NCBI GenBank assembly: GCA_029838195.1
Contig: JALGVJ010000009.1
Span: 29,126-93,125 of the forward strand
Length of the DNA: 64,000 nucleotides
Origin: Promethearchaeota archaeon
Lineage (GTDB): Archaea; Asgardarchaeota; Lokiarchaeia; Sigyniarchaeales; SOKP01
Direction: 5' to 3'
Position numbers and translations under genes: made by a program. This document shows positions 32,726 to 46,992 of this stretch, one piece after another (position 1 is the stretch's first letter; the number at the start of each line of letters is the position of its first letter). The notes under the pieces were generated by a model. The model made no database searches. It was not told the DNA's origin and was given only the letters and a program-made list of their open reading frames with translations.

Positions 32726-33004
32726 TTGAAATCGAGCTTCTTGCTCTTATATTTTTTCCATTCTAACAAGAGATGTTCTAGTCTAAAGTTAGATACATTG
32801 ATAATTCACGTGGAAAAAGCTCATGTAGAGCATGAAGGAGCGTATCAAGCAATTAATAATTTATTTTTGAAACATTGTTGTAAGGAAGGAGTTAAATACG
32901 TGAATGGAGAGCAAGATTTAGGAATTTCGGGAATTAGAAAAGCCAAACTTTCTTATAAACCACATCACATGGTTAAAAAATACATTATTTATAAAAAATC
33001 GTGA
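32726..33004 (+). pseudogene. Probable gene fragment: C-terminal piece of a DUF2156/GNAT-type (lysyl-PG-synthase C-domain-like) protein
   Basis: The 92-aa TTG-started ORF ends YVNGEQDLGISGIRKAKLSYKPHHMVKKY, which matches the conserved C-terminal block of DUF2156 proteins as I recall it. The N-terminal 40 aa are low-complexity and non-homologous. Confidence 0.3.
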
Positions 33005-33140: not shown

Positions 33141-35033
33141 ATGAATGATCAAGAAATGCCGGAAAAAGAATCAAGCGAACCTGTCGGCAGGTTAACCGGA
33201 AAGACTACAACCCATTCGGCTACCATGCTAATTAAAGACCCAAAGGTGGGTAAGAATAATTATTTTGTATTATATGGGCATGAGGGTAAAGAAGGCGAGC
33301 AAGAGTACTATATATTAACCGTTGAGGATATTTGGAATGATTCAGAAGGAATTAAAGCGAACGTAAAAATAATAGGAAATCGGCCTAATCGGCCTTTTGA
33401 TATAGGCTCTGATGTATACCTCGCAACAGATGAACAAATTAAAAAAATATTGGGGATCGATAATCCTCCGAATCAATCAGTCTCCTTGGGTACTCTTTTA
33501 GGGTATGATTTTAATGTTAATCTTTTAGTTAAAAAAATAGGGCGGGTTTTCATCACGGGCAAGTCCGGATCAGGAAAGAGCTACACGATGGGTGTATTAT
33601 GTGAAGAATTCCTTCAAAAAGGCATACCCATCGTGATATTAGACCGTCATGGAGAGTATGGGAGTTTGAAAGTATCAAGTGATGAATTAACACCTCTTGA
33701 AAAGGAGGAAAAGCAAGAAGTCGAGGTGGGAGAAAGGGATGAATCCGGACTCTGTCCTTGGTGTGGTTCTTCCATTCCATTAGATGCCAAAATTTGTGAA
33801 TTTTGTGGAAAAGAGCTCGTAGCGGAATTCGATAAAACATCCAACGAAGGCCAAACGCAAGAAGCCATCCACGAAAAAACGTCAGAAAAAAGGGGGTCCA
33901 CCCCTCAAAAAGAAGCTTTAGAAAGTCCTTTTGTGAATAGTATCATTGAATATGCAGATCTAAAAAAGAATCGGGGTGGAGATATTGATCTTGAATATCT
34001 TTTTTCACTAGACGTGAAGGATATCGTGGCTCCCAGATTATGTACAATTGTGAACTTGCGTGGATTAGACTTGGAAGTTCAAGAACAAATCGCCGGTAAG
34101 CTTCTCAAAAAATTATATCAAGCTAGCACGGAAGGAAAAATCCCGCCATTCTACTTATTTTTAGATGAAGCCCATTTATTTGCCGGGAAAAAAACCAGCG
34201 AAACTTCAGAAATAGTAAAACTTTTTGCTCAAGAGGGGCGAAAATTTGGTGCAAATATTATCATTGGAACTCAGAGACCCCAGCTTCTCGATACCACGAT
34301 TCGAGCTCAAGCCGGAACGTGGATAGTCCATAATTTGTCGGATGTTAGAGATATCGATATCACGATTTCCAGTGCGGAAGATTTGAGTAAAGAACATAAA
34401 AACGATATTTCGGGTCTGGATAAAGGACAGGCAATTATTAGCGGAGAAGCGGTTTCCGGGATCCCTCTATTAGTGCAAGTGAGAAGAAGAAAAACTAAAC
34501 ACGGAGGAACTGGATTTAATCCATTGGATTTTCTTTCGGAAGAGACCATTGAAGAGCTTCAAAAGAGAAAAGAAAGGATATTAGCGAAAAAATCTTCAGA
34601 AGAATTACAAGTAGGTCGCACGATGTTTGAAGAAATGCAAAAGCCCCGGACTGTTGAAGAATCCTTGGAAGAAATCGCTCAATTGAAAGTAAGATTGAAG
34701 GAATTGGAAGAAGAAAATGACATGCTAAAAGCAAAATGTAATGAATTAGAACGGAAAACGCCCGCCGGATCCATTAGTTCCAGGGCAGAAAACGAAAAAA
34801 TAAAGGAATTACAGACCCAGATAAAAGTATGGCAAGAAAAATATAATCATTTAAAAAAATCCATGGAAACCTCGGAGCCTTCCACTTTCACAGAAACTAA
34901 TGATCAACTGAGAGAACTTAATAATAAAATTATTGAATTACAAGCAGAACTTAAAAAATACAAGGAGAAATACACGGATGCGCTTCTTTTAGCGGAAAAA
35001 TCAATTGCAGAATTGAAAAAATTAAAACGCTAA
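33141..35033 (+). CDS. HerA/DUF87-family ATPase with an inserted Zn-ribbon and a C-terminal coiled coil
   Basis: It has Walker A ITGKSGSGKSYT, ILDRHGEY, Walker B FYLFLDEAHLF, and GRKFGANIIIGTQRP. The insert carries CPWCGSSIPLDAKICEFCG. The last ~130 aa are heptad-rich (LKELEEENDMLKAK...). Confidence 0.75.
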   Translation: MNDQEMPEKESSEPVGRLTGKTTTHSATMLIKDPKVGKNNYFVLYGHEGKEGEQEYYILTVEDIWNDSEGIKANVKIIGNRPNRPFDIGSDVYLATDEQIKKILGIDNPPNQSVSLGTLLGYDFNVNLLVKKIGRVFITGKSGSGKSYTMGVLCEEFLQKGIPIVILDRHGEYGSLKVSSDELTPLEKEEKQEVEVGERDESGLCPWCGSSIPLDAKICEFCGKELVAEFDKTSNEGQTQEAIHEKTSEKRGSTPQKEALESPFVNSIIEYADLKKNRGGDIDLEYLFSLDVKDIVAPRLCTIVNLRGLDLEVQEQIAGKLLKKLYQASTEGKIPPFYLFLDEAHLFAGKKTSETSEIVKLFAQEGRKFGANIIIGTQRPQLLDTTIRAQAGTWIVHNLSDVRDIDITISSAEDLSKEHKNDISGLDKGQAIISGEAVSGIPLLVQVRRRKTKHGGTGFNPLDFLSEETIEELQKRKERILAKKSSEELQVGRTMFEEMQKPRTVEESLEEIAQLKVRLKELEEENDMLKAKCNELERKTPAGSISSRAENEKIKELQTQIKVWQEKYNHLKKSMETSEPSTFTETNDQLRELNNKIIELQAELKKYKEKYTDALLLAEKSIAELKKLKR

Positions 35034-35072
35034 TATTGCTCTGATTTTTTGTTTAAAATGAAATGGCTTAAT
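34761..35072. repeat. Direct repeat copy A (312 bp): the 3' end of the HerA-like gene plus 39 nt downstream
   Basis: Hand alignment to 36026-36337 shows 6 mismatches in 312 nt, at 34782, 34850, 34860, 34874, 34898 and 34994. Confidence 0.9.
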
Positions 35073-35115
35073 TAAGAAGAAAAGAAAAAATGGAATAATG
35101 ATGAGAATATTTATT

Positions 35116-35237
35116 ATAAGAAAATTTAATAATAGAACATGTTTGTAAACATTAACTAATCATTTTTAATAAAAGATAAAAAATGAAAATGGAAAGATAA
35201 AATTTAGAGCCTCATTCTTTAACCATTGAAAACCTAA
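35116..35237. repeat. Diverged (~80%) copy of the P-type ATPase promoter/5' end, with a decayed start (ATG GAA AGA TAA at 35189-35200)
   Basis: Hand alignment to 36616-36731. The shared blocks are AGAAAATTTAATAAT, ACATTAACTAA, ATGGAAAGA and CTCATTCTTTAAC. Confidence 0.6.
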
Positions 35238-35323
35238 AAAATTTGATTAATTTTACTATATTATCCAAATATTTTGGACAAAGCGAGTTAATTATAAATA
35301 TGTGTATGAATATGTGTAAATTG

Positions 35324-35563
35324 ATGACTTCTAAAAATATTAGTATACGGGAAGATGTCTATAATAAATTAATAAAAATTAAGAGAGAAAAGGAAAGTTT
35401 TTCGGATTTATTTTTGCGATTATTAAAAACACAAAAAATGAATCTTAAAAAATCATTTGGGGCTTGGCAGCTTACTGAAAAGGAAAAACAGGAAATTTGG
35501 AATGATATTACGAATCGGCCTGGAAGAAAATGGAATAAATCAAAATTAGATCAAGTAAAATGA
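35324..35563 (+). CDS. vapB: VapB-type antitoxin (COG1753/PF02697-like)
   Basis: MTSKNISIREDVYNKLIKIKREKESFSDLFLRLL fits the archaeal VapB pattern. There is a 4-nt ATGA overlap with the PIN gene. The ATG at 35324 is preferred to the TTG at 35243. Confidence 0.65.
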   Translation: MTSKNISIREDVYNKLIKIKREKESFSDLFLRLLKTQKMNLKKSFGAWQLTEKEKQEIWNDITNRPGRKWNKSKLDQVK

Positions 35564-35967
35564 TTGTTCTTGATACAACAGCTTGTATTGATTATTTAAA
35601 CGGTAATGAGAATATCTGGAATCTAATTTCAAAAATCGAAGGTCTTTTTTATATTACGTCCATTACGATATATGAAATTAATATTGGATTAGAAAGAACA
35701 AAAATAAAAATATCAGAGAAAAGATATAATGAACTTAATAAGAGATGGCTTGAATTTATTAGTGGAATAGAAGTTCTTCCCTTAAATATTAAAGAAGCCT
35801 TGGAGGCTGCAAGAATATATAATAGATTAGAATCTAAAGGAAAAATCATTGATGATAACGATATTCTTATAATGGGAATAATGCTATCAAACGGTTTTAG
35901 AAAAATTATTACAAGAAATGTCAAGCATTTTAAATTAATTAAGGAAATTGAAGTTTTAACCTATTAA
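35560..35967 (+). CDS. vapC: PIN-domain ribonuclease toxin VapC
   Basis: 135 aa with acidic PIN residues in MIVLDTTACIDYL, ..ITIYEI.., ..DDNDILI.., and ..ITRNVKHF. Confidence 0.85.
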   Translation: MIVLDTTACIDYLNGNENIWNLISKIEGLFYITSITIYEINIGLERTKIKISEKRYNELNKRWLEFISGIEVLPLNIKEALEAARIYNRLESKGKIIDDNDILIMGIMLSNGFRKIITRNVKHFKLIKEIEVLTY

Positions 35968-36025
35968 ATAATAATGCAAACCATATTTTGTAAACTTAAT
36001 ATCTCAGAAATAGGGAAACTAAACA

Positions 36026-36337
36026 CCCGCCGGATCCATTAGTTCCGGGGCAGAAAACGAAAAAATAAAGGAATTACAGACCCAGATAAAAGTATGGCAA
36101 GAAAAATATAATCACTTAAAAAAAACCATGGAAACCTCAGAGCCTTCCACTTTCACAGAAACCAATGATCAACTGAGAGAACTTAATAATAAAATTATTG
36201 AATTACAAGCAGAACTTAAAAAATACAAGGAGAAATACACGGATGCGCTTCTTTTAGCAGAAAAATCAATTGCAGAATTGAAAAAATTAAAACGCTAATA
36301 TTGCTCTGATTTTTTGTTTAAAATGAAATGGCTTAAT
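36026..36337. repeat. Direct repeat copy B (312 bp): a promoterless, 5'-truncated duplicate of the HerA-like 3' end (91 codons to the same TAA at 36296-36298) plus 39 nt
   Basis: See copy A; the offset is 1265 nt. No start codon or upstream coding continuity, so it is a gene fragment. Confidence 0.9.
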
Positions 36338-36682
36338 GCATGCGAACATGTTGTTCTTAATTCTTAGAATTTTTATTTTTCTCTTCTGAATTATGAATTC
36401 AATGGTTTATTTTTTTAGTTTCATTATTCTTTGGAAATATTGAACCAGAATGGGAATTTTATGCTGTTCTTTTTTTTTAAGTGCCCATGGGTAAAAATTA
36501 AGAAGAATTATATGAAATTTCAAATTTTAATTTAAACGAATATAACCCTCCTCCAGTGAAATTAAATAAATAGGGAAGTAAAAATTGAATGATAATGATA
36601 CTATAATAGATTATCATGAGAAAATTTAATAATGGACCTTGTTTTAAAACATTAACTAACAATTTTCAACAATAGATACAAC

Positions 36683-39580
36683 ATGGAAAGAAAAAATTTA
36701 GATGCTCATTCTTTAACTATTGAAACCCTAAGCGACATTTTAAACACCTCAATCCAAAATGGTCTTAGTGAGGAAGAAGCTAAAGTTCGGCTGGAAAAAT
36801 ACGGCTCAAATGAGCTAAAGCAAGTGAAGAAAATTTCGGCCCTCGAAATTTTTATTTCTCAATTCAAGGATTTTTTAATATATTTATTATTTGGAGCAAT
36901 AATATTTTCGTTATTTGTAGGATTTTTCGAACTAATAGAAGGAAATACTCCTACTGAATTTCTGGATGCAATTGTCATATCCATTATTTTAGTAAGTAAC
37001 GCAATTTTGGGATTTTATCAAGAATACAAAGCAGAGAAATCTCTTGAAAGTCTAAAGAAAATGGCGCCTCGTAATGCTACCGTAAAGCGAAATGGAAAAG
37101 TAAGAGAAATTGATGTGGAAAATGTTATACCCGGAGATTTAATAATTTTAAAAGAAGGAGATAAAGTTCCCGCAGACGCAAGGCTGGTTAAAGCCTTTTC
37201 ATTATATGTGGATGAGTCAATATTGACAGGAGAGTCCCAGCCCATCCTCAAAAAGACTGAAGTTTTAAAAAGAGAAACTCCTTTAGCCGATAGAAAGAAT
37301 ATGGTGTATAGCAATACCATTATAACTCGCGGAAATGGTATGGCTTTGATCATTAATACCGGTATGTCTACAGAAATAGGTAAAATTGCCGAAAAGATTC
37401 AAGAACAAGAACCGGAACTTAGTCCTTTTCAGCAAGAAATTAATCGCTTCGGAAAGACCTTAGGTAAAATAGTCATCTTGGTCTGTGTTACATTGTTCTC
37501 CATTGAATTAATTCTCATTTTGATGTTTGCGGGAAACATGCCATCCGGAGCAATAATTGAAGAAATCCTCAAGGCAATTACAATAACCATCACTCTGGCC
37601 GTTTCTGCTGTGCCTGAAGGCTTAGTCGTTGTTATAACGGTTGTAATGAGCATTGGCATGCGAAAAATGGCCGAAAGGAATGCTTTAGTGAAGAGACTCA
37701 CCGCAGTAGAGACATTAGGAAGGATAAATATCATTTGTTCGGATAAAACGGGCACCTTAACTCGAAATGAAATGACCGTGGTAAAAATTTATGAGGGGGG
37801 GAATACATTTGCTGTAGATGGAGTGGGATATAAACTCGAAGGCACCATACTAAATCCCTCTGGAGAGCCAATGAAAATTATTGAAAATCCTTATTTAGAA
37901 AAATTTCTTCAAGTAGCCTTGTATTGTAATAATTCAAATGTCAATATTAAAGAAGATGGTGTTAATTTAGAGGTCGTGGGCGATCCTACAGAAATTTGCC
38001 TAAAGGTGCTCGCTTTAAAAATGGGACTTGCTCCTAATGCGGAAAAATTAGATGAAATACCTTTCAATTCGGATAGAAAGATGATGTCTGTTGCCGTTCG
38101 AATTGACGGGAAACTTTATTCCTTTATTAAAGGAGCACCGGATGTTCTATTGAAGAAAGCAGCTAAAGGAATATTAAATGGTAAGGAATACCCGATTGAT
38201 GAGGTTAAAGACCTCATTATGGAAAAAAATAATCAATTTGGGAATGAAGCTTTAAGAGTACTTGGACTAGCTTATAAACCATTAAATGAAAATTATAGTA
38301 AGGAAGATTTAGAGAAAGATTATATTTATCTGGGATTAGCGGGCATTATCGATCCTCCTCGCCTTGAAGTTAAGGATTCTATCAAAAAAGCCAAAAATGG
38401 AGGAATCAGAACCATGATGATCACAGGAGATCATAAAGTTACGGCAATCGCCGTCGGTAAAGAAATTGGTTTGACTGAAAATGATGAGGCTATTACCGGT
38501 GTTGAATTAGAAGAAATGGACGATGCCCAATTGGCCCAAAAAATTAAAAATACGAATATATTTGCCCGCGTGACGTCTGAGCAAAAACTCCGCATTCTTA
38601 ATATACTTAAATCTCAAAACAATGTTGTTTGCATGACGGGAGATGGAGTTAATGACGCCCCTGCAGTTAAAGCAGCGAATGTGGGCGTTGCCATGGGAAT
38701 TAATGGAACTGAGGTTACCCAAGAAGCCGCGGACATGATCCTACTTGATGATAATTATGCTACCATCGTGAATGCAATTGAAGAAGGACGAGGTATTTTT
38801 AATAATACGAAAAATTTCTTCCGATACATGTTAAGTGTAAATTTTGCAGAGATATTTTTAATTCTAACCGCCTGGATTTTAATGAGTTTTACGCGTGGTA
38901 TCTTTTTTGCCATACCTTTAGAGCCTATTCAAATTCTCTGGCTTAATATCGCCACGGATGGTATTCCGGCAATGGTTTTAGGTTTTACACCTACAGATCC
39001 GGACGTAATGAAGTTCAAGCCCCGTAAAGGGTTTAATATGATTTCTGATATTAAAAATGCCATTATTTTTGCCTCGGTGCTTAACTCAATCATAGACATC
39101 ATTTTGTATGTTTCATGTTGGACCATATTGATACCTTCTTGGAGTATAATAGATTCGCGATTCGTGTACGGAACAGAGATTAATGGAATCATTTATACGG
39201 GAATGGAATATAAAATCGCTGTCGCACAGACCATCTTATTTACCAGTGTCGTATTCTTCGAATTATTTTTCGTCTTTTCGTGTATTTCTGAATATAAACC
39301 CTTGTGGTTATTCCGAAATAAGCATCTCTTTTGGGCCACGGGCATATCTTTTGTTTTACATCTTATGCTCCTATTCACACCATTAGCGTACATATTTAAT
39401 GCGGTGCCGTTAGACCGATGGTATTATTGGCTCGTAGTATTTAGCGCTGCCCTTATCTTACCTGCTGAAGAACTGAGAAAATATTTTGTACGCCGTAAGC
39501 TGAAGAAGAAAGAAATCATTGATTTTCAAGATAATAATCGTTTCTCCAAGCTAAAACCAAAATCCAAAGAAATGAACTAA
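36683..39580 (+). CDS. P2-type (SERCA/PMCA-like) cation-transporting ATPase, probably Ca2+
   Basis: 965 aa with TGES, PEGL, the phosphorylation site CSDKTGTLT, MITGDH and TGDGVNDAPA. Confidence 0.9.
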   Translation: MERKNLDAHSLTIETLSDILNTSIQNGLSEEEAKVRLEKYGSNELKQVKKISALEIFISQFKDFLIYLLFGAIIFSLFVGFFELIEGNTPTEFLDAIVISIILVSNAILGFYQEYKAEKSLESLKKMAPRNATVKRNGKVREIDVENVIPGDLIILKEGDKVPADARLVKAFSLYVDESILTGESQPILKKTEVLKRETPLADRKNMVYSNTIITRGNGMALIINTGMSTEIGKIAEKIQEQEPELSPFQQEINRFGKTLGKIVILVCVTLFSIELILILMFAGNMPSGAIIEEILKAITITITLAVSAVPEGLVVVITVVMSIGMRKMAERNALVKRLTAVETLGRINIICSDKTGTLTRNEMTVVKIYEGGNTFAVDGVGYKLEGTILNPSGEPMKIIENPYLEKFLQVALYCNNSNVNIKEDGVNLEVVGDPTEICLKVLALKMGLAPNAEKLDEIPFNSDRKMMSVAVRIDGKLYSFIKGAPDVLLKKAAKGILNGKEYPIDEVKDLIMEKNNQFGNEALRVLGLAYKPLNENYSKEDLEKDYIYLGLAGIIDPPRLEVKDSIKKAKNGGIRTMMITGDHKVTAIAVGKEIGLTENDEAITGVELEEMDDAQLAQKIKNTNIFARVTSEQKLRILNILKSQNNVVCMTGDGVNDAPAVKAANVGVAMGINGTEVTQEAADMILLDDNYATIVNAIEEGRGIFNNTKNFFRYMLSVNFAEIFLILTAWILMSFTRGIFFAIPLEPIQILWLNIATDGIPAMVLGFTPTDPDVMKFKPRKGFNMISDIKNAIIFASVLNSIIDIILYVSCWTILIPSWSIIDSRFVYGTEINGIIYTGMEYKIAVAQTILFTSVVFFELFFVFSCISEYKPLWLFRNKHLFWATGISFVLHLMLLFTPLAYIFNAVPLDRWYYWLVVFSAALILPAEELRKYFVRRKLKKKEIIDFQDNNRFSKLKPKSKEMN

Positions 39581-39929: not shown

Positions 39930-41156
39930 TCATTTATTGGTAATAGGTTTAATTAAAAGGGCAAGGACCGCGGCGATTATCGATAGCGTGCCTAAGAAGA
40001 TATATAACGTGAAGTACCCTCCAAAGGCCAGAACGATTTGATTTACAGCAACCGCTCCGATGAAACCGGCCACGCCATAGGCAGTGAACATGGCGCCATA
40101 ATTTGAGCCAAGATTTTTCGTGCCGAACATGTCGCTGGTAGCCGTGGGGAAAAGAGAAAGATTTCCTCCGAAGCAAAACATGATGAGTCCCGTGAACAGG
40201 AAGTAAAAAGGGATGCTCATGTTAGTCATAAAATAAAAATAAAATAAGAATGCTTGGAGAATCATCATAATGATGAGTGCTTTTTTGAAGTTTAAGAGAT
40301 CAGCTAATTTTCCCCAGGAGATTCTCCCGAGTCCATTAAATAGTGCTCCAATGCTTCCCGTTAATACGATTAAATCTGCGCTATTTATGAGATAATTAGG
40401 ATCCGATTTTGCGAAGGAGCCGTATGTCCCGATAAGCATCAAGCCACACATGGCGGAAAGAAAATAGGAGCCCCACATTAACCAGAATTGCATTTTTTTT
40501 ACTATTTCTCTCCTTTCAAAATCCCTTGAAGAAATTAAGCTTCCTTCTTTAGGAGCAGGAGGCATCCAACCAGAAGGCATGTAGCCTTCGGGAGGGTCGA
40601 GCATGAAAGCCGAGCCAATGATGAGGAATGCAAAATAGAACATTGCAAGCAAGATGAACATGAGCGGAATGCCAAGAGGCGCAAAAAACTTGATCAAGTA
40701 ATTAAAGATGAAGGAGCCAGCACCAAATCCGGCCACGGCGACACCGGTAATCATCCCTTTTTTATCCGGAAACCAGAGATTGGCAATAGCTATCGGAACA
40801 ACATAAGCCAATCCAATCCCGAGTCCAAACATTAAACCATAAGTGAGTAGCAATCCGATGAGCGTGGTCATGGTCGCGGAAAGGAATACACCTGTTGCAA
40901 TGACGATAGCTCCAATGAGAACGGTTTTTTGCGGTCCCACTTTCTTAACAAGCGCTCCCGCTTGAATCATGGTCACGGCAAAAGCAATTAATCCAATCCC
41001 GAAGATATAAATAGTTTCAGCAGGATCCCTTCCTAAATAAGGACTCACGAACACGGTAAGCGTGCCCCAACTGTAGATTGACCCAAGAGCTAATTGAATG
41101 AGTATGGCGCCTATTACTACGTACCACCGATTTTTTTCTAATAATTCTTTAAACAT
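39930..41156 (-). CDS. MFS transporter, oxalate/formate antiporter (OFA)-like
   Basis: 408 aa with 12 TM segments. The N-terminus RWYVVIGAILIQLALGSIYSWG is typical of the OFA family. Confidence 0.7.
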   Translation of the reverse strand: MFKELLEKNRWYVVIGAILIQLALGSIYSWGTLTVFVSPYLGRDPAETIYIFGIGLIAFAVTMIQAGALVKKVGPQKTVLIGAIVIATGVFLSATMTTLIGLLLTYGLMFGLGIGLAYVVPIAIANLWFPDKKGMITGVAVAGFGAGSFIFNYLIKFFAPLGIPLMFILLAMFYFAFLIIGSAFMLDPPEGYMPSGWMPPAPKEGSLISSRDFERREIVKKMQFWLMWGSYFLSAMCGLMLIGTYGSFAKSDPNYLINSADLIVLTGSIGALFNGLGRISWGKLADLLNFKKALIIMMILQAFLFYFYFMTNMSIPFYFLFTGLIMFCFGGNLSLFPTATSDMFGTKNLGSNYGAMFTAYGVAGFIGAVAVNQIVLAFGGYFTLYIFLGTLSIIAAVLALLIKPITNK

Positions 41157-45034: not shown

Positions 45035-46774
45035 ATGAATTTTAAAAGGCTCGTGTTAAGCGGAATTTTTTTAGCCATATTTATCATGGGTGCTTGTTTA
45101 TTATGTACTACTCCGATTTCAGTGAAAATATATTCAAACGTGAAGATTCAAAAAGAAAATGGGGATTTTATCTATATAAATATAATTTCTCCTCAAGAAA
45201 CCTTGTTTCAACAAGAAAATGGTTATGAGAAAAAAAACGTGATTTTTTTACTTCATGATGGATGGCAAAATAAAGAAACCATGAAAGCTTTAGGAATTGA
45301 GCTCGCTACTGCGGGCTTCCTAATCGTGAGTCTTGATTTTAGAGGGTTAGGGAGAAGTTCTCTCACAAATAACATTTCAGAATGGAAAAATGATATCGCA
45401 ACCGTCAAGGCGTATCTTCTTGAAGCAAGAAATGAAATCAATAGAGAAGCCTTTGGTCTAATAGGACATGGTCTTGGAGGAATAATGGGATATTCTTACC
45501 TTAAAAATGATTTAGATATCAAGGCTTACGTGGGAATAGGTACGGGACTTTCCTATTTCTCCGATGATATCATTAAAGTGAAGTCGAGATTTTTAAATCT
45601 CCTCATCATTCATCCAAAACACGATCAAACTGTTCATTTAATAGACATAAAATCGGGTATGGCAGCACGTTTAAATGTTCAAAATCCTGATGTTGATGTG
45701 AATAAGCTTTATGGTGATTTCCAAGAAGGTACGGCATCAATGATTTATTTAGATGATAATAGTAATCATTTAACAGCAATATGGGATTCAAATATTTTAA
45801 GAATGGCTCGTTTTTGGATGGTTAACTCCTTTCCTCATGTTAATGCCGTGGATGAGAACTTTCATGCTAATTTTCGAGCATTAATTTTAATCATTCAATT
45901 AATAGGGGGTTTGGGATTTTATTTTTCAATTTTTAGTCCTATTTCGAAACTCTTTTTAGGAACAAACAATTCGAGAAAAATAAGGATAAATATTCATCCA
46001 TTAACTTTTCGAGGCATTCCCATAAGGCTCATTACATATCCCGTTGTTTTTAGTTTCCCTGTTATTGTCTTGTTTTCTCCCATCATGTTTTTCATACCCT
46101 TGCCCGTTACAGGGTTTATCTTAACTCTATTCCTCGGACAAGCAACTGGTTTTTTGATACTATCTTGGAGGATAGGAAAAAGAACTAAGATGAGAGTTAG
46201 AGATTTTATTGAATTGCCTTTTAGAGAAAAAAAAAGCCGGATCTTTATCAAAATTGCTTTAGGAATTATTCTTTTTGCTATTTTATTTGGAATCTTATAC
46301 TTATCCATCGGAATGAATTATTTAGGAATTGTCCCACCATTTTTAAAGATTCCCTTTATTGCCGTTCATGGACTCATTGGAGCGTTCATTTTATTAGTGG
46401 AAGACATGATTTTTCGATTAATAATTCACTCACGATACCCCTTTATCCGGAAAAACTTGATTAAAATGGCGCTGGTGTCTTTTGGATACCAATCCTTCTA
46501 TTATTTCACGTATATTTTGAGTTTTTGCATCCATTTGGGTAATTATCATTATTTTGGAATATACATGCCAATTGGTCTTCCCGTTCTTTTATTAATTTCG
46601 TTCATTTCTTCAATTTCTTATCAAAAAACGGGTAATGTTTTGACCGGCATGACAATCAACACTTTATTCATCATTCCTTTTCTCTGCACGCTCTCATTTC
46701 CTCAAAATGGTTTCACGTTCGTTTTCGATTACGTGCATCGAGTTATTGCTAATTATCTTGCTATGTATCCCTAA
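45035..46774 (+). CDS. Membrane protein: N-terminal alpha/beta-hydrolase domain fused to a CPBP (CAAX/Abi-like) intramembrane protease-like domain
   Basis: It has LHDGWQNKE...SLDFRGLGRS and the GHGLGG nucleophile elbow. The C-terminal multi-TM part has VEDMIFR (EExxxR-like) and later H-containing helices. Confidence 0.4.
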   Translation: MNFKRLVLSGIFLAIFIMGACLLCTTPISVKIYSNVKIQKENGDFIYINIISPQETLFQQENGYEKKNVIFLLHDGWQNKETMKALGIELATAGFLIVSLDFRGLGRSSLTNNISEWKNDIATVKAYLLEARNEINREAFGLIGHGLGGIMGYSYLKNDLDIKAYVGIGTGLSYFSDDIIKVKSRFLNLLIIHPKHDQTVHLIDIKSGMAARLNVQNPDVDVNKLYGDFQEGTASMIYLDDNSNHLTAIWDSNILRMARFWMVNSFPHVNAVDENFHANFRALILIIQLIGGLGFYFSIFSPISKLFLGTNNSRKIRINIHPLTFRGIPIRLITYPVVFSFPVIVLFSPIMFFIPLPVTGFILTLFLGQATGFLILSWRIGKRTKMRVRDFIELPFREKKSRIFIKIALGIILFAILFGILYLSIGMNYLGIVPPFLKIPFIAVHGLIGAFILLVEDMIFRLIIHSRYPFIRKNLIKMALVSFGYQSFYYFTYILSFCIHLGNYHYFGIYMPIGLPVLLLISFISSISYQKTGNVLTGMTINTLFIIPFLCTLSFPQNGFTFVFDYVHRVIANYLAMYP

Positions 46775-46992
46775 ACCTTATCCGATTTTAAAATAAGTCA
46801 ATAGCAAGATAAATGAATAATTAAATGAATTTTAAATAGTTTCTCATTTTCATAATACAATTAGATAAAATTTAATCGCGAAAATACGGCGTGTATTAAT
46901 AATTTTTTTAATCAAGACTTTTTCTGTAATCCGCTTTTAGTTGTTTTTGGATTTTATGGTTCCTTTGGGCGTTAAAAGACTTCAAAAGCAGC

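Follow-up and report, generated by a model that had tools for sequence, protein, structure and literature searches.

A vapBC toxin-antitoxin cassette bracketed by copies of a duplicated gene junction in an Asgard archaeon

The window analyzed here, a stretch of 64,000 nucleotides (nt), comes from a Promethearchaeota archaeon of the Asgard class Lokiarchaeia (GenBank assembly GCA_029838195.1, contig JALGVJ010000009.1, positions 29,126 to 93,125 of the forward strand). It harbors a small vapBC toxin-antitoxin cassette that sits between the genes for a HerA-like ATPase and a P-type cation ATPase, and the junction of these two genes is present on both sides of the cassette. The order thus reads HerA end, tail and ATPase promoter/start, then vapBC, then HerA end, tail, a 229-nt segment and ATPase promoter/start. 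Both flanking genes are intact, both inner fragments (termed B' and A') are dead, and Pfam annotation of the genes from 29230 to about 43000 reveals no integrase or transposase domain, in agreement with the original prediction that was made for this DNA from its letters alone. The locus is an archaeal case, with a toxin-antitoxin cargo, of a known type of insertion that works without a recombinase; it is not a new kind of element. With regard to its history, we lean toward an old insertion with target duplication, in which the 312-nt HerA half of the duplicated target would later have been homogenized by gene conversion. The component parts, in window coordinates, are as follows.

33141-35033, forward strand: gene for the HerA-like ATPase, 630 amino acids (aa), intact (Pfam DUF87/HerA_C; PADLOC HerA models)
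34761-35072, forward strand: repeat copy A, consisting of the last 91 HerA codons, the stop codon and a 39-nt T-rich tail; the functional copy
35073-35237, forward strand: B', in which the ATPase promoter region and the initial 49 coding nt of the ATPase gene recur in decayed form
35238-36025, forward strand: inserted segment X, 788 nt, carrying vapBC and its own promoter, located exactly between the ends of the duplicated target
35293-35320, forward strand: probable TATA box and direct-repeat, operator-like block TATAAATATGTGTATGAATATGTGTAAA, 28 nt, found in a DNA alignment of relatives
35324-35563, forward strand: vapB antitoxin gene, 79 aa (Pfam VAPB_antitox PF02697, 3.3e-16)
35560-35967, forward strand: vapC gene for a PIN-domain toxin, 135 aa, intact (Pfam PIN PF01850, 2.5e-12)
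36026-36337, forward strand: repeat copy B (A'), the dead 3' fragment of HerA followed by the 39-nt tail, in which 306 of 312 bases equal copy A
36338-36566, forward strand: the 229-nt segment, present in copy B only
36567-36731, forward strand: resident ATPase promoter region and first 49 coding nt, the functional counterpart of B'
36683-39580, forward strand: gene for the P-type (E1-E2) cation ATPase, 965 aa, intact (Pfam)

The HerA half of the duplication had been recognized in the original prediction, and both self-comparison and a BLASTN check of the repeat boundaries reproduce it as two 312-nt copies that are offset by 1265 nt and differ by six mismatches and no indels. The BLAST match reaches 5 nt further, to 34756 (317 nt, 7 mismatches, E = 2e-153), and a search of the whole assembly, a 4.5-Mb metagenome-assembled genome (MAG) of 94 contigs with 33% G+C and 7.9% estimated contamination, found no third copy. 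The six mismatches are found at positions 34782, 34850, 34860, 34874, 34898 and 34994 of copy A. A recount in the HerA frame gave the same result as the prediction, with four synonymous third-position changes, two nonsynonymous first-position changes (R/G and S/T) and none in the 39-nt noncoding tail; indeed, the final 78 nt of the block, up to the 229-nt indel, are identical in both copies. At the S/T site, comparison with orthologs places the sole congener with the copy A state and other relatives with the copy B state, and the R/G site is gapped. The reading frame of copy B is open for 91 codons only and has no coding continuity upstream, as had been proposed, although an internal ATG is present. 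A 56-aa gene listed in public records at 36128-36298 corresponds to the remainder of the dead HerA fragment from this internal ATG, and is probably an annotation artifact.

What had been missed is the second half of the repeat. The duplication does not end at 35072/36337 but continues beyond the 229-nt segment, such that 35073-35237 aligns with 36567-36731, where 130 of 159 aligned bases are identical (82%) and 12 gap columns represent two 6-nt indels. Because this ATPase half is also duplicated, the layout is one of target-vapBC-target, with the whole gene junction on both sides of the cassette. The duplicated target amounts to 477-706 nt in total and its outer ends are sharp, at 34756-34761 and at 35237/36731. 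Read from the alignment, B' has a TAA at codon 4 and a 6-nt insertion at the start codon, and the differences in its coding part, which are mostly nonsynonymous and include the stop, indicate decay. No better donor for B' was found among the family genomes, in that none matches 35034-35323 better than does the resident region upstream of the ATPase gene; the other matches to this interval are AT-rich noise or the vapB operator.

The two halves of the target are thus of very different identity, 306/312 (98%) against 130/159 (82%) (Fisher p = 7e-10), and the break falls exactly at the 229-nt indel. This segment may be either an insertion in copy B or a deletion from copy A, with TTAAT/TTAAAT microhomology at its edges, and it recurs neither elsewhere in the genome nor in relatives and has no match in Rfam. 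At 18% divergence around 7 differences would be expected in the 39-nt tail, and none is observed. The presence of 98% and 82% identity side by side within one target excludes a single donor that had diverged uniformly.

Within the 788-nt insert, the cassette has a left flank of around 55 nt and a right flank of 58 nt, and apart from the promoter/operator block neither has a match in relatives. Pfam confirms both of the genes that had been placed between the repeat copies. The vapC gene overlaps vapB by 4 nt, and the cassette therefore has the gene order that characterizes type II VapBC systems, in which a PIN toxin gene is preceded and overlapped by a small antitoxin gene, on which basis it is assigned to that class. 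We place the vapB start at the ATG at 35324, although gene callers put it at 35300 or 35306. The block TATAAATATGTGTATGAATATGTGTAAA is identical or nearly so in all aligned Asgard relatives, the proteins of which are 60-75% identical, and it is the sole conserved DNA outside vapB and vapC. Since it ends 3 nt before the vapB ATG, it probably represents the TATA box and VapB operator of a leaderless vapBC transcript. Its position also suggests that vapB gene calls of 85-87 aa in public records start too early.

VapC has 166 homologs, mostly from Asgard archaea, which form a family of 135-aa proteins that is widespread in this group. Where present the vapBC family is single-copy, and it occurs in 42 of the 161 genomes of the class but is absent from the only congener. 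The closest VapC relatives (72-75% identical) are encoded either after an FAD_binding_4/CCG operon and before a nitroreductase gene, or beside an open reading frame (ORF) of 1,600 aa. Across the loci L061-L069 these neighbors (the FAD_binding_4/CCG operon, the 1,600-aa ORF and the nitroreductase) appear shuffled between genomes. In the present genome (G000) the FAD operon lies at C86:97548-102329 with a spacer of 12 nt to the next gene, and no vapBC, nitroreductase, hydrolase or scar is found there. A relocation of vapBC from this locus was considered, but so tight an operon fits it no better than an acquisition from outside.

If the structure did arise as an old insertion, the whole junction would have been duplicated at once, from the last 273 nt of HerA, through the 39-nt tail and the intergenic promoter region, up to nt 49 of the ATPase coding sequence. 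The HerA gene would in this way have retained its end on the left and the ATPase gene its promoter and start on the right, leaving the dead B' and A' adjoining the cassette. Host recombination or repair could build such a structure without a recombinase, either through a target-bearing circle that integrates by one crossover or through repair that is unequal or switches template, and the 82% identity of the ATPase half suggests that the event is probably old. Thereafter, gene conversion between the copies would keep the 312-nt HerA half uniform, in a tract bounded by the end of the duplication on one side and by the 229-nt indel on the other; the 98% identity and its abrupt edge would follow from a conversion tract that stops at this heterology. 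A 312-nt direct repeat of 98% identity, with its copies 1.3 kb apart, should delete readily by recombination, and such a deletion would remove vapBC. Loss of a type II toxin-antitoxin system is expected to be penalized, as the toxin outlasts the antitoxin; this property is established for such systems and underlies the suggestion that archaeal vapBC pairs secure unstable regions (PMC3119797). The arrangement may therefore persist because predicted vapBC addiction, through a stable toxin and a labile antitoxin, penalizes loss of the cassette, which would in effect stabilize its own insertion.

Several points weigh against this account. The only sign of gene conversion is the identity contrast itself, and the HerA half has a 4:2 excess of synonymous changes that, if real, would fit allelic divergence better than decay after conversion. 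Furthermore, an empty site, in which HerA, its tail and the ATPase gene follow one another without vapBC, was not found in any genome or contig examined, and the insertion is consequently deduced from the anatomy and not from a before/after comparison. The comparison with an empty site and the search for vapBC-free variants, both of which had been put forward as checks, were made in relatives and public contigs and returned none. Every recorded contig with this ATPase also has this VapC, and the six contig blocks on record with this VapC all carry this ATPase. Exact-protein look-ups with HerA and GAPDH gave no matches, and those with VapC and the ATPase returned the same contigs. HerA scans of metagenomes and genomes found no relative above 74% identity apart from conspecific strains, all of which have the insert. 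In more distant relatives HerA lies beside MFS or M42 genes, without vapBC or the ATPase.

The principal alternative is an import of the Campbell type, as favored in the original prediction. A circle from a close strain would have carried vapBC, the HerA end of that strain and an old remnant of the ATPase start, and would have entered through one crossover within the 3' end of HerA. The alleles of donor and recipient would then have diverged by the 2% that separates the copies, and the drop to 82% would lie where the conserved HerA gene gives way to a variable region that was not alike in the two strains. We consider this possible, but on the present evidence doubtful. The anatomy is exactly that expected from the single crossover of a circle, four of the six differences are synonymous with none in the tail, and identity drops right where the terminator-like tail of HerA stops, the point at which synteny among relatives ends as well. 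The patchy distribution of vapBC, including its absence from the congener, together with the different contexts of its closest relatives, indicates that vapBC does move. However, the synonymous bias, which the original prediction had taken to suggest that both copies diverged within functional genes, does not bear that weight: the probability of at least four of six mismatches at third positions is 0.10, and the bias is absent from two further inserts of this genome that lie between repeats. In the repeats on contig C8 the mismatches by codon position are 3/3/3, one of them a stop, and pooled over three cases they are 6/4/9, which is not significant. An import would moreover need an unobserved donor allele with a HerA end that is 98% identical but with the next 165 nt only 82% identical, and an unexplained 1.3-kb circle joining the end of vapBC to HerA codon 541; as all six VapC contig blocks also have the ATPase, neither parental allele has been seen. 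What endures of the Campbell-type proposal is an insertion scar that has no recombinase in its vicinity and for which a single crossover is one acceptable route, whereas a uniformly diverged donor is at odds with the 98% and 82% halves. Nor do we retain the low rank that had been given to duplication in situ followed by decay, as an old insertion with later gene conversion fits at least as well. We prefer gene conversion to import because it calls on ordinary processes only and on no unseen allele.

Two local events without any conversion offer another, improbable, route. An older insertion of vapBC and the 229-nt segment would have duplicated around 165 nt of the ATPase start, and a template switch or unequal exchange would later have placed a copy of 312 nt from the HerA end 953 nt further downstream. 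Two events would account for the two ages, 82% and 98%, without gene conversion, and many short dispersed duplications of different ages are indeed found in this genome. The second event, though, must insert its copy precisely where the vapBC segment stops on its right and the 229-nt segment starts on its left, and the block that it copies must also end exactly where the first duplication begins. The duplication of a single contiguous target provides these coincidences free.

It is very unlikely that the insert is the integrase-less remnant of a site-specific element at the HerA 3' end, with the repeats as attL and attR in the manner of a cis-mobilizable element (CIME). Elements that integrate into gene 3' ends do bring a copy of that end with them, direct repeats being left behind, and in a related metagenome contig (L037) an AbiU gene abuts a HerA tail fragment. 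Against this, there is no integrase in or near the insert, which is only 788 nt long, and the target of 477-706 nt is far above the size of usual att sites and takes in part of the following gene. In genus g7, the target of this vapBC family is trpG and not HerA. On these grounds, and with no tRNA gene or Rfam element found near the locus, a site-specific integrative element or CIME was rejected as a candidate.

The slimmest chance is given to an assembly artifact, in the form of a chimeric path through a strain mixture or a small circular molecule. The 94-contig state of the MAG, its 7.9% estimated contamination and one public contig that starts inside vapB might raise this suspicion, but the same layout in independent assemblies makes it unlikely. 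The JGI contig Ga0366835_1000346, of 82.5 kb, covers the structure from end to end, and its copies A and B show the six differences seen in the window. The NCBI contig JBQSIY010000269.1, which starts inside vapB and so lacks copy A, shares the gene order and has the same copy B state at all six sites. These contigs differ from the window by 7 single-nucleotide polymorphisms over 12.4 kb and 6 over 6.5 kb, respectively (around 99.9% identity). In addition, the six differences are spaced 10-96 nt apart and are thus phasable by short reads, an 82% identical half and a 229-nt indel are impossible to obtain from strain collapse, and an analogous older structure is found in two species of another genus.

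Other candidates were set aside. A tandem duplication from the HerA end to the ATPase gene, with vapBC replacing the first ATPase copy, was considered on account of a resemblance between the 58 nt that follow vapC and sequence downstream of the ATPase gene; the resemblance is weak (p about 0.04 against composition-matched genome windows). An integron-type cassette was dismissed, as inspection by eye of the 58 nt after vapC gave no attC-like structure with GTT/AAC ends, and there is no integrase. Insertion sequences, transposons and casposons are likewise discounted, since there is no transposase, no significant inverted repeats were found at the ends of the insert and the duplication extends over hundreds of nucleotides.

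Similar structures occur elsewhere. In genus g7 two species (genomes G007 and G057) have the order trpG, spacer, vapBC of the same family and then a trpG 3' fragment directly after vapC. In the first of these (L074, G007:C192, positions 65-1290) the two copies of the trpG end are 78% identical over 124 nt of DNA, and in the second (L098, G057:C103) the fragment matches TrpG at 56% over 34 aa. One of the two species has a stop in vapC, whereas in the other the gene is intact. The trpG case is an older, independent event of the same architecture, and as the arrangement is common to two species and vapC is broken in one of them, the event is older than a speciation and scars of this sort persist for long. 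At thirty-odd other loci with this vapBC family, no flanking duplication is seen. On the metagenome contig mentioned above (L037, Ga0209427_10025969, positions 2-1072), an ORF of the AbiU/AIPR abortive-infection type (PADLOC AbiU 5e-78) runs in frame into a HerA tail. This tail consists of the last 120 or so codons and lies directly upstream of an M42-MFS pair; the contig ends before the upstream side. The joining of AbiU to the HerA tail means that a further accessory gene has landed at this same gene end.

Self-comparison of the genome revealed about ten more direct repeats, of 120-320 nt and 79-97% identity, that bracket 1-5 kb of extra genes. The repeats correspond to neighboring gene ends or intergenic regions, and the longer ones tend to be more alike. 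Examples include repeats of 305 nt (96.7% identical) around a two-gene AAA_15/AAA_21 ATPase module at C8:12305-15225, of 260 nt (97.3% identical) around a glycosyltransferase gene at C1:46340-50178, and of 185 nt (90% identical) around a two-gene insert at C35:101733-103772. Further repeat-flanked inserts are found on contigs C76, C28 (two), C87 (two), C89 and C92, and the cargo of such inserts in this genome includes sulfatases with transporters and a PMT-type glycosyltransferase. Inside the insert on C1, a 117-aa ORF at 46585-46938 has a weak match to serine recombinases (Resolvase N-terminal, E = 7e-4) and may be a recombinase remnant.

The closest known parallel is insertion with long target duplication (ILTD), which has been described for restriction-modification (RM) complexes (Nobusato et al. 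2000, Gene 259:99, as cited in PMC2853133). In Helicobacter, and later in many bacteria, RM genes were found inserted with target duplications of 30-420 bp and 93-99% identity; the repeats often span a start or stop, the target genes survive, no mobility gene is involved, and no archaeal case passed the screen (Furuta, Abe & Kobayashi 2010, NAR 38:2428; PMC2853133). The present locus resembles these in having a small, addiction-type cassette between direct repeats of the target that are longer than 30 bp and occur nowhere else in the genome, without a transposase or integrase. Its insert, at 788 nt, is far below 20 kb, and its duplicated stretch spans a gene stop and a gene start while the neighboring genes remain intact. 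It differs in its host, an Asgard archaeon, in the greater length of the target (477-706 nt), in the very different identity of the two halves and in the lack of an available empty site. The cargo also differs, being a VapBC pair of the RNase type and not a DNA-cutting RM system. The locus therefore works like ILTD yet stands outside an RM-only definition, and the idea of double-strand breaks made by the RM cargo is inapplicable here, as VapBC does not cut DNA.

Campbell-type insertion-duplication, the 'pop-in' of archaeal and bacterial genetics, shares with the locus the target-insert-target order, the lack of a dedicated recombinase and reversibility through the repeats. It is, however, a laboratory mechanism with a defined circular donor, whereas no donor, circle or pop-out allele is seen here and a further assumption is required to account for the difference in identity between the halves. 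Archaeal vapBC pairs are known to lie in variable regions and have been proposed to hold local DNA in place (PMC3119797). The present pair is like the chromosomal VapBC of the Sulfolobales in its gene overlap, its single copy per genome, its patchy occurrence and its location in a variable spot; descriptions of the latter give no insertion mechanism or flanking duplications, whereas here the entry scar is kept. CIMEs, too, have accessory genes that are flanked by direct repeats with a gene 3' end and no recombinase in between, but their att sites are short, are produced by a site-specific recombinase and always use the same target, in contrast to repeats of hundreds of bases that extend into the next gene and affect different targets.

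No new molecular machine is revealed by the locus. What it does provide is a clean example, from an Asgard archaeon, of the preserved scar left by the entry of a toxin-antitoxin cassette, and it shows that ILTD operates in archaea too. With a cargo that does not cut DNA, it points to host recombination or repair, and away from breaks inflicted by the cargo. The 98%/82% contrast within one duplicated target would also be a natural read-out of the limits of gene conversion in an uncultured lineage, and the several similar structures in the genome suggest that the route contributes to gene gain in large archaeal genomes. More speculatively, and with the odds well against it, Asgard (Promethearchaeia) genomes may routinely gain accessory genes by a recombinase-free, homology-driven route. 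Circles or fragments with a piece of the host target would enter, a gene end or junction would be duplicated and addictive cargo, for instance a toxin-antitoxin or defense module, would lock the insertion in. The vapBC family, with its invariant TATA/operator block, would be a recurrent passenger that could leave as a circle via the repeats.

HerA orthologs with conserved upstream synteny are found in 40 of 41 relatives, and HerA is a core gene of the family, with the order GAPDH, LPG_synthase_C-like gene, HerA kept across it. Downstream, the usual order in relatives is an M42 peptidase gene and/or an MFS gene on the reverse strand, the latter following immediately in two closer genera. In the sole congener, where HerA is 74% identical, genes for a hydrolase, an LRR protein and an ACT protein lie downstream instead, and synteny with the present genome resumes at amidohydrolase and malic enzyme genes. 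The region beyond HerA is thus variable among relatives, with HerA-MFS or HerA-M42-MFS in some and unrelated genes in others. The ATPase gene is lineage-specific at this position and in relatives is never directly after HerA; in this species vapBC, A' and the ATPase gene all sit between HerA and the following gene.

39930-41156, reverse strand: MFS transporter gene, the conserved convergent neighbor of HerA in the closest syntenic relatives

This conserved convergent position is what identifies the MFS gene as the far edge of the variable spot.

Two further observations concern HerA and its upstream neighbor. At 33690-33910 (HerA residues ~183-258) this species and a few close genera have an insertion of around 75 aa with a zinc ribbon; most members of the family are without it, and their alignments skip residues 183-257. 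Between the GAPDH and HerA genes, at 32726-33004, only the last 70 or so codons of the LPG_synthase_C-like gene remain, where the gene of relatives encodes 309-311 aa, and this truncated gene is a second rearrangement scar next to HerA.

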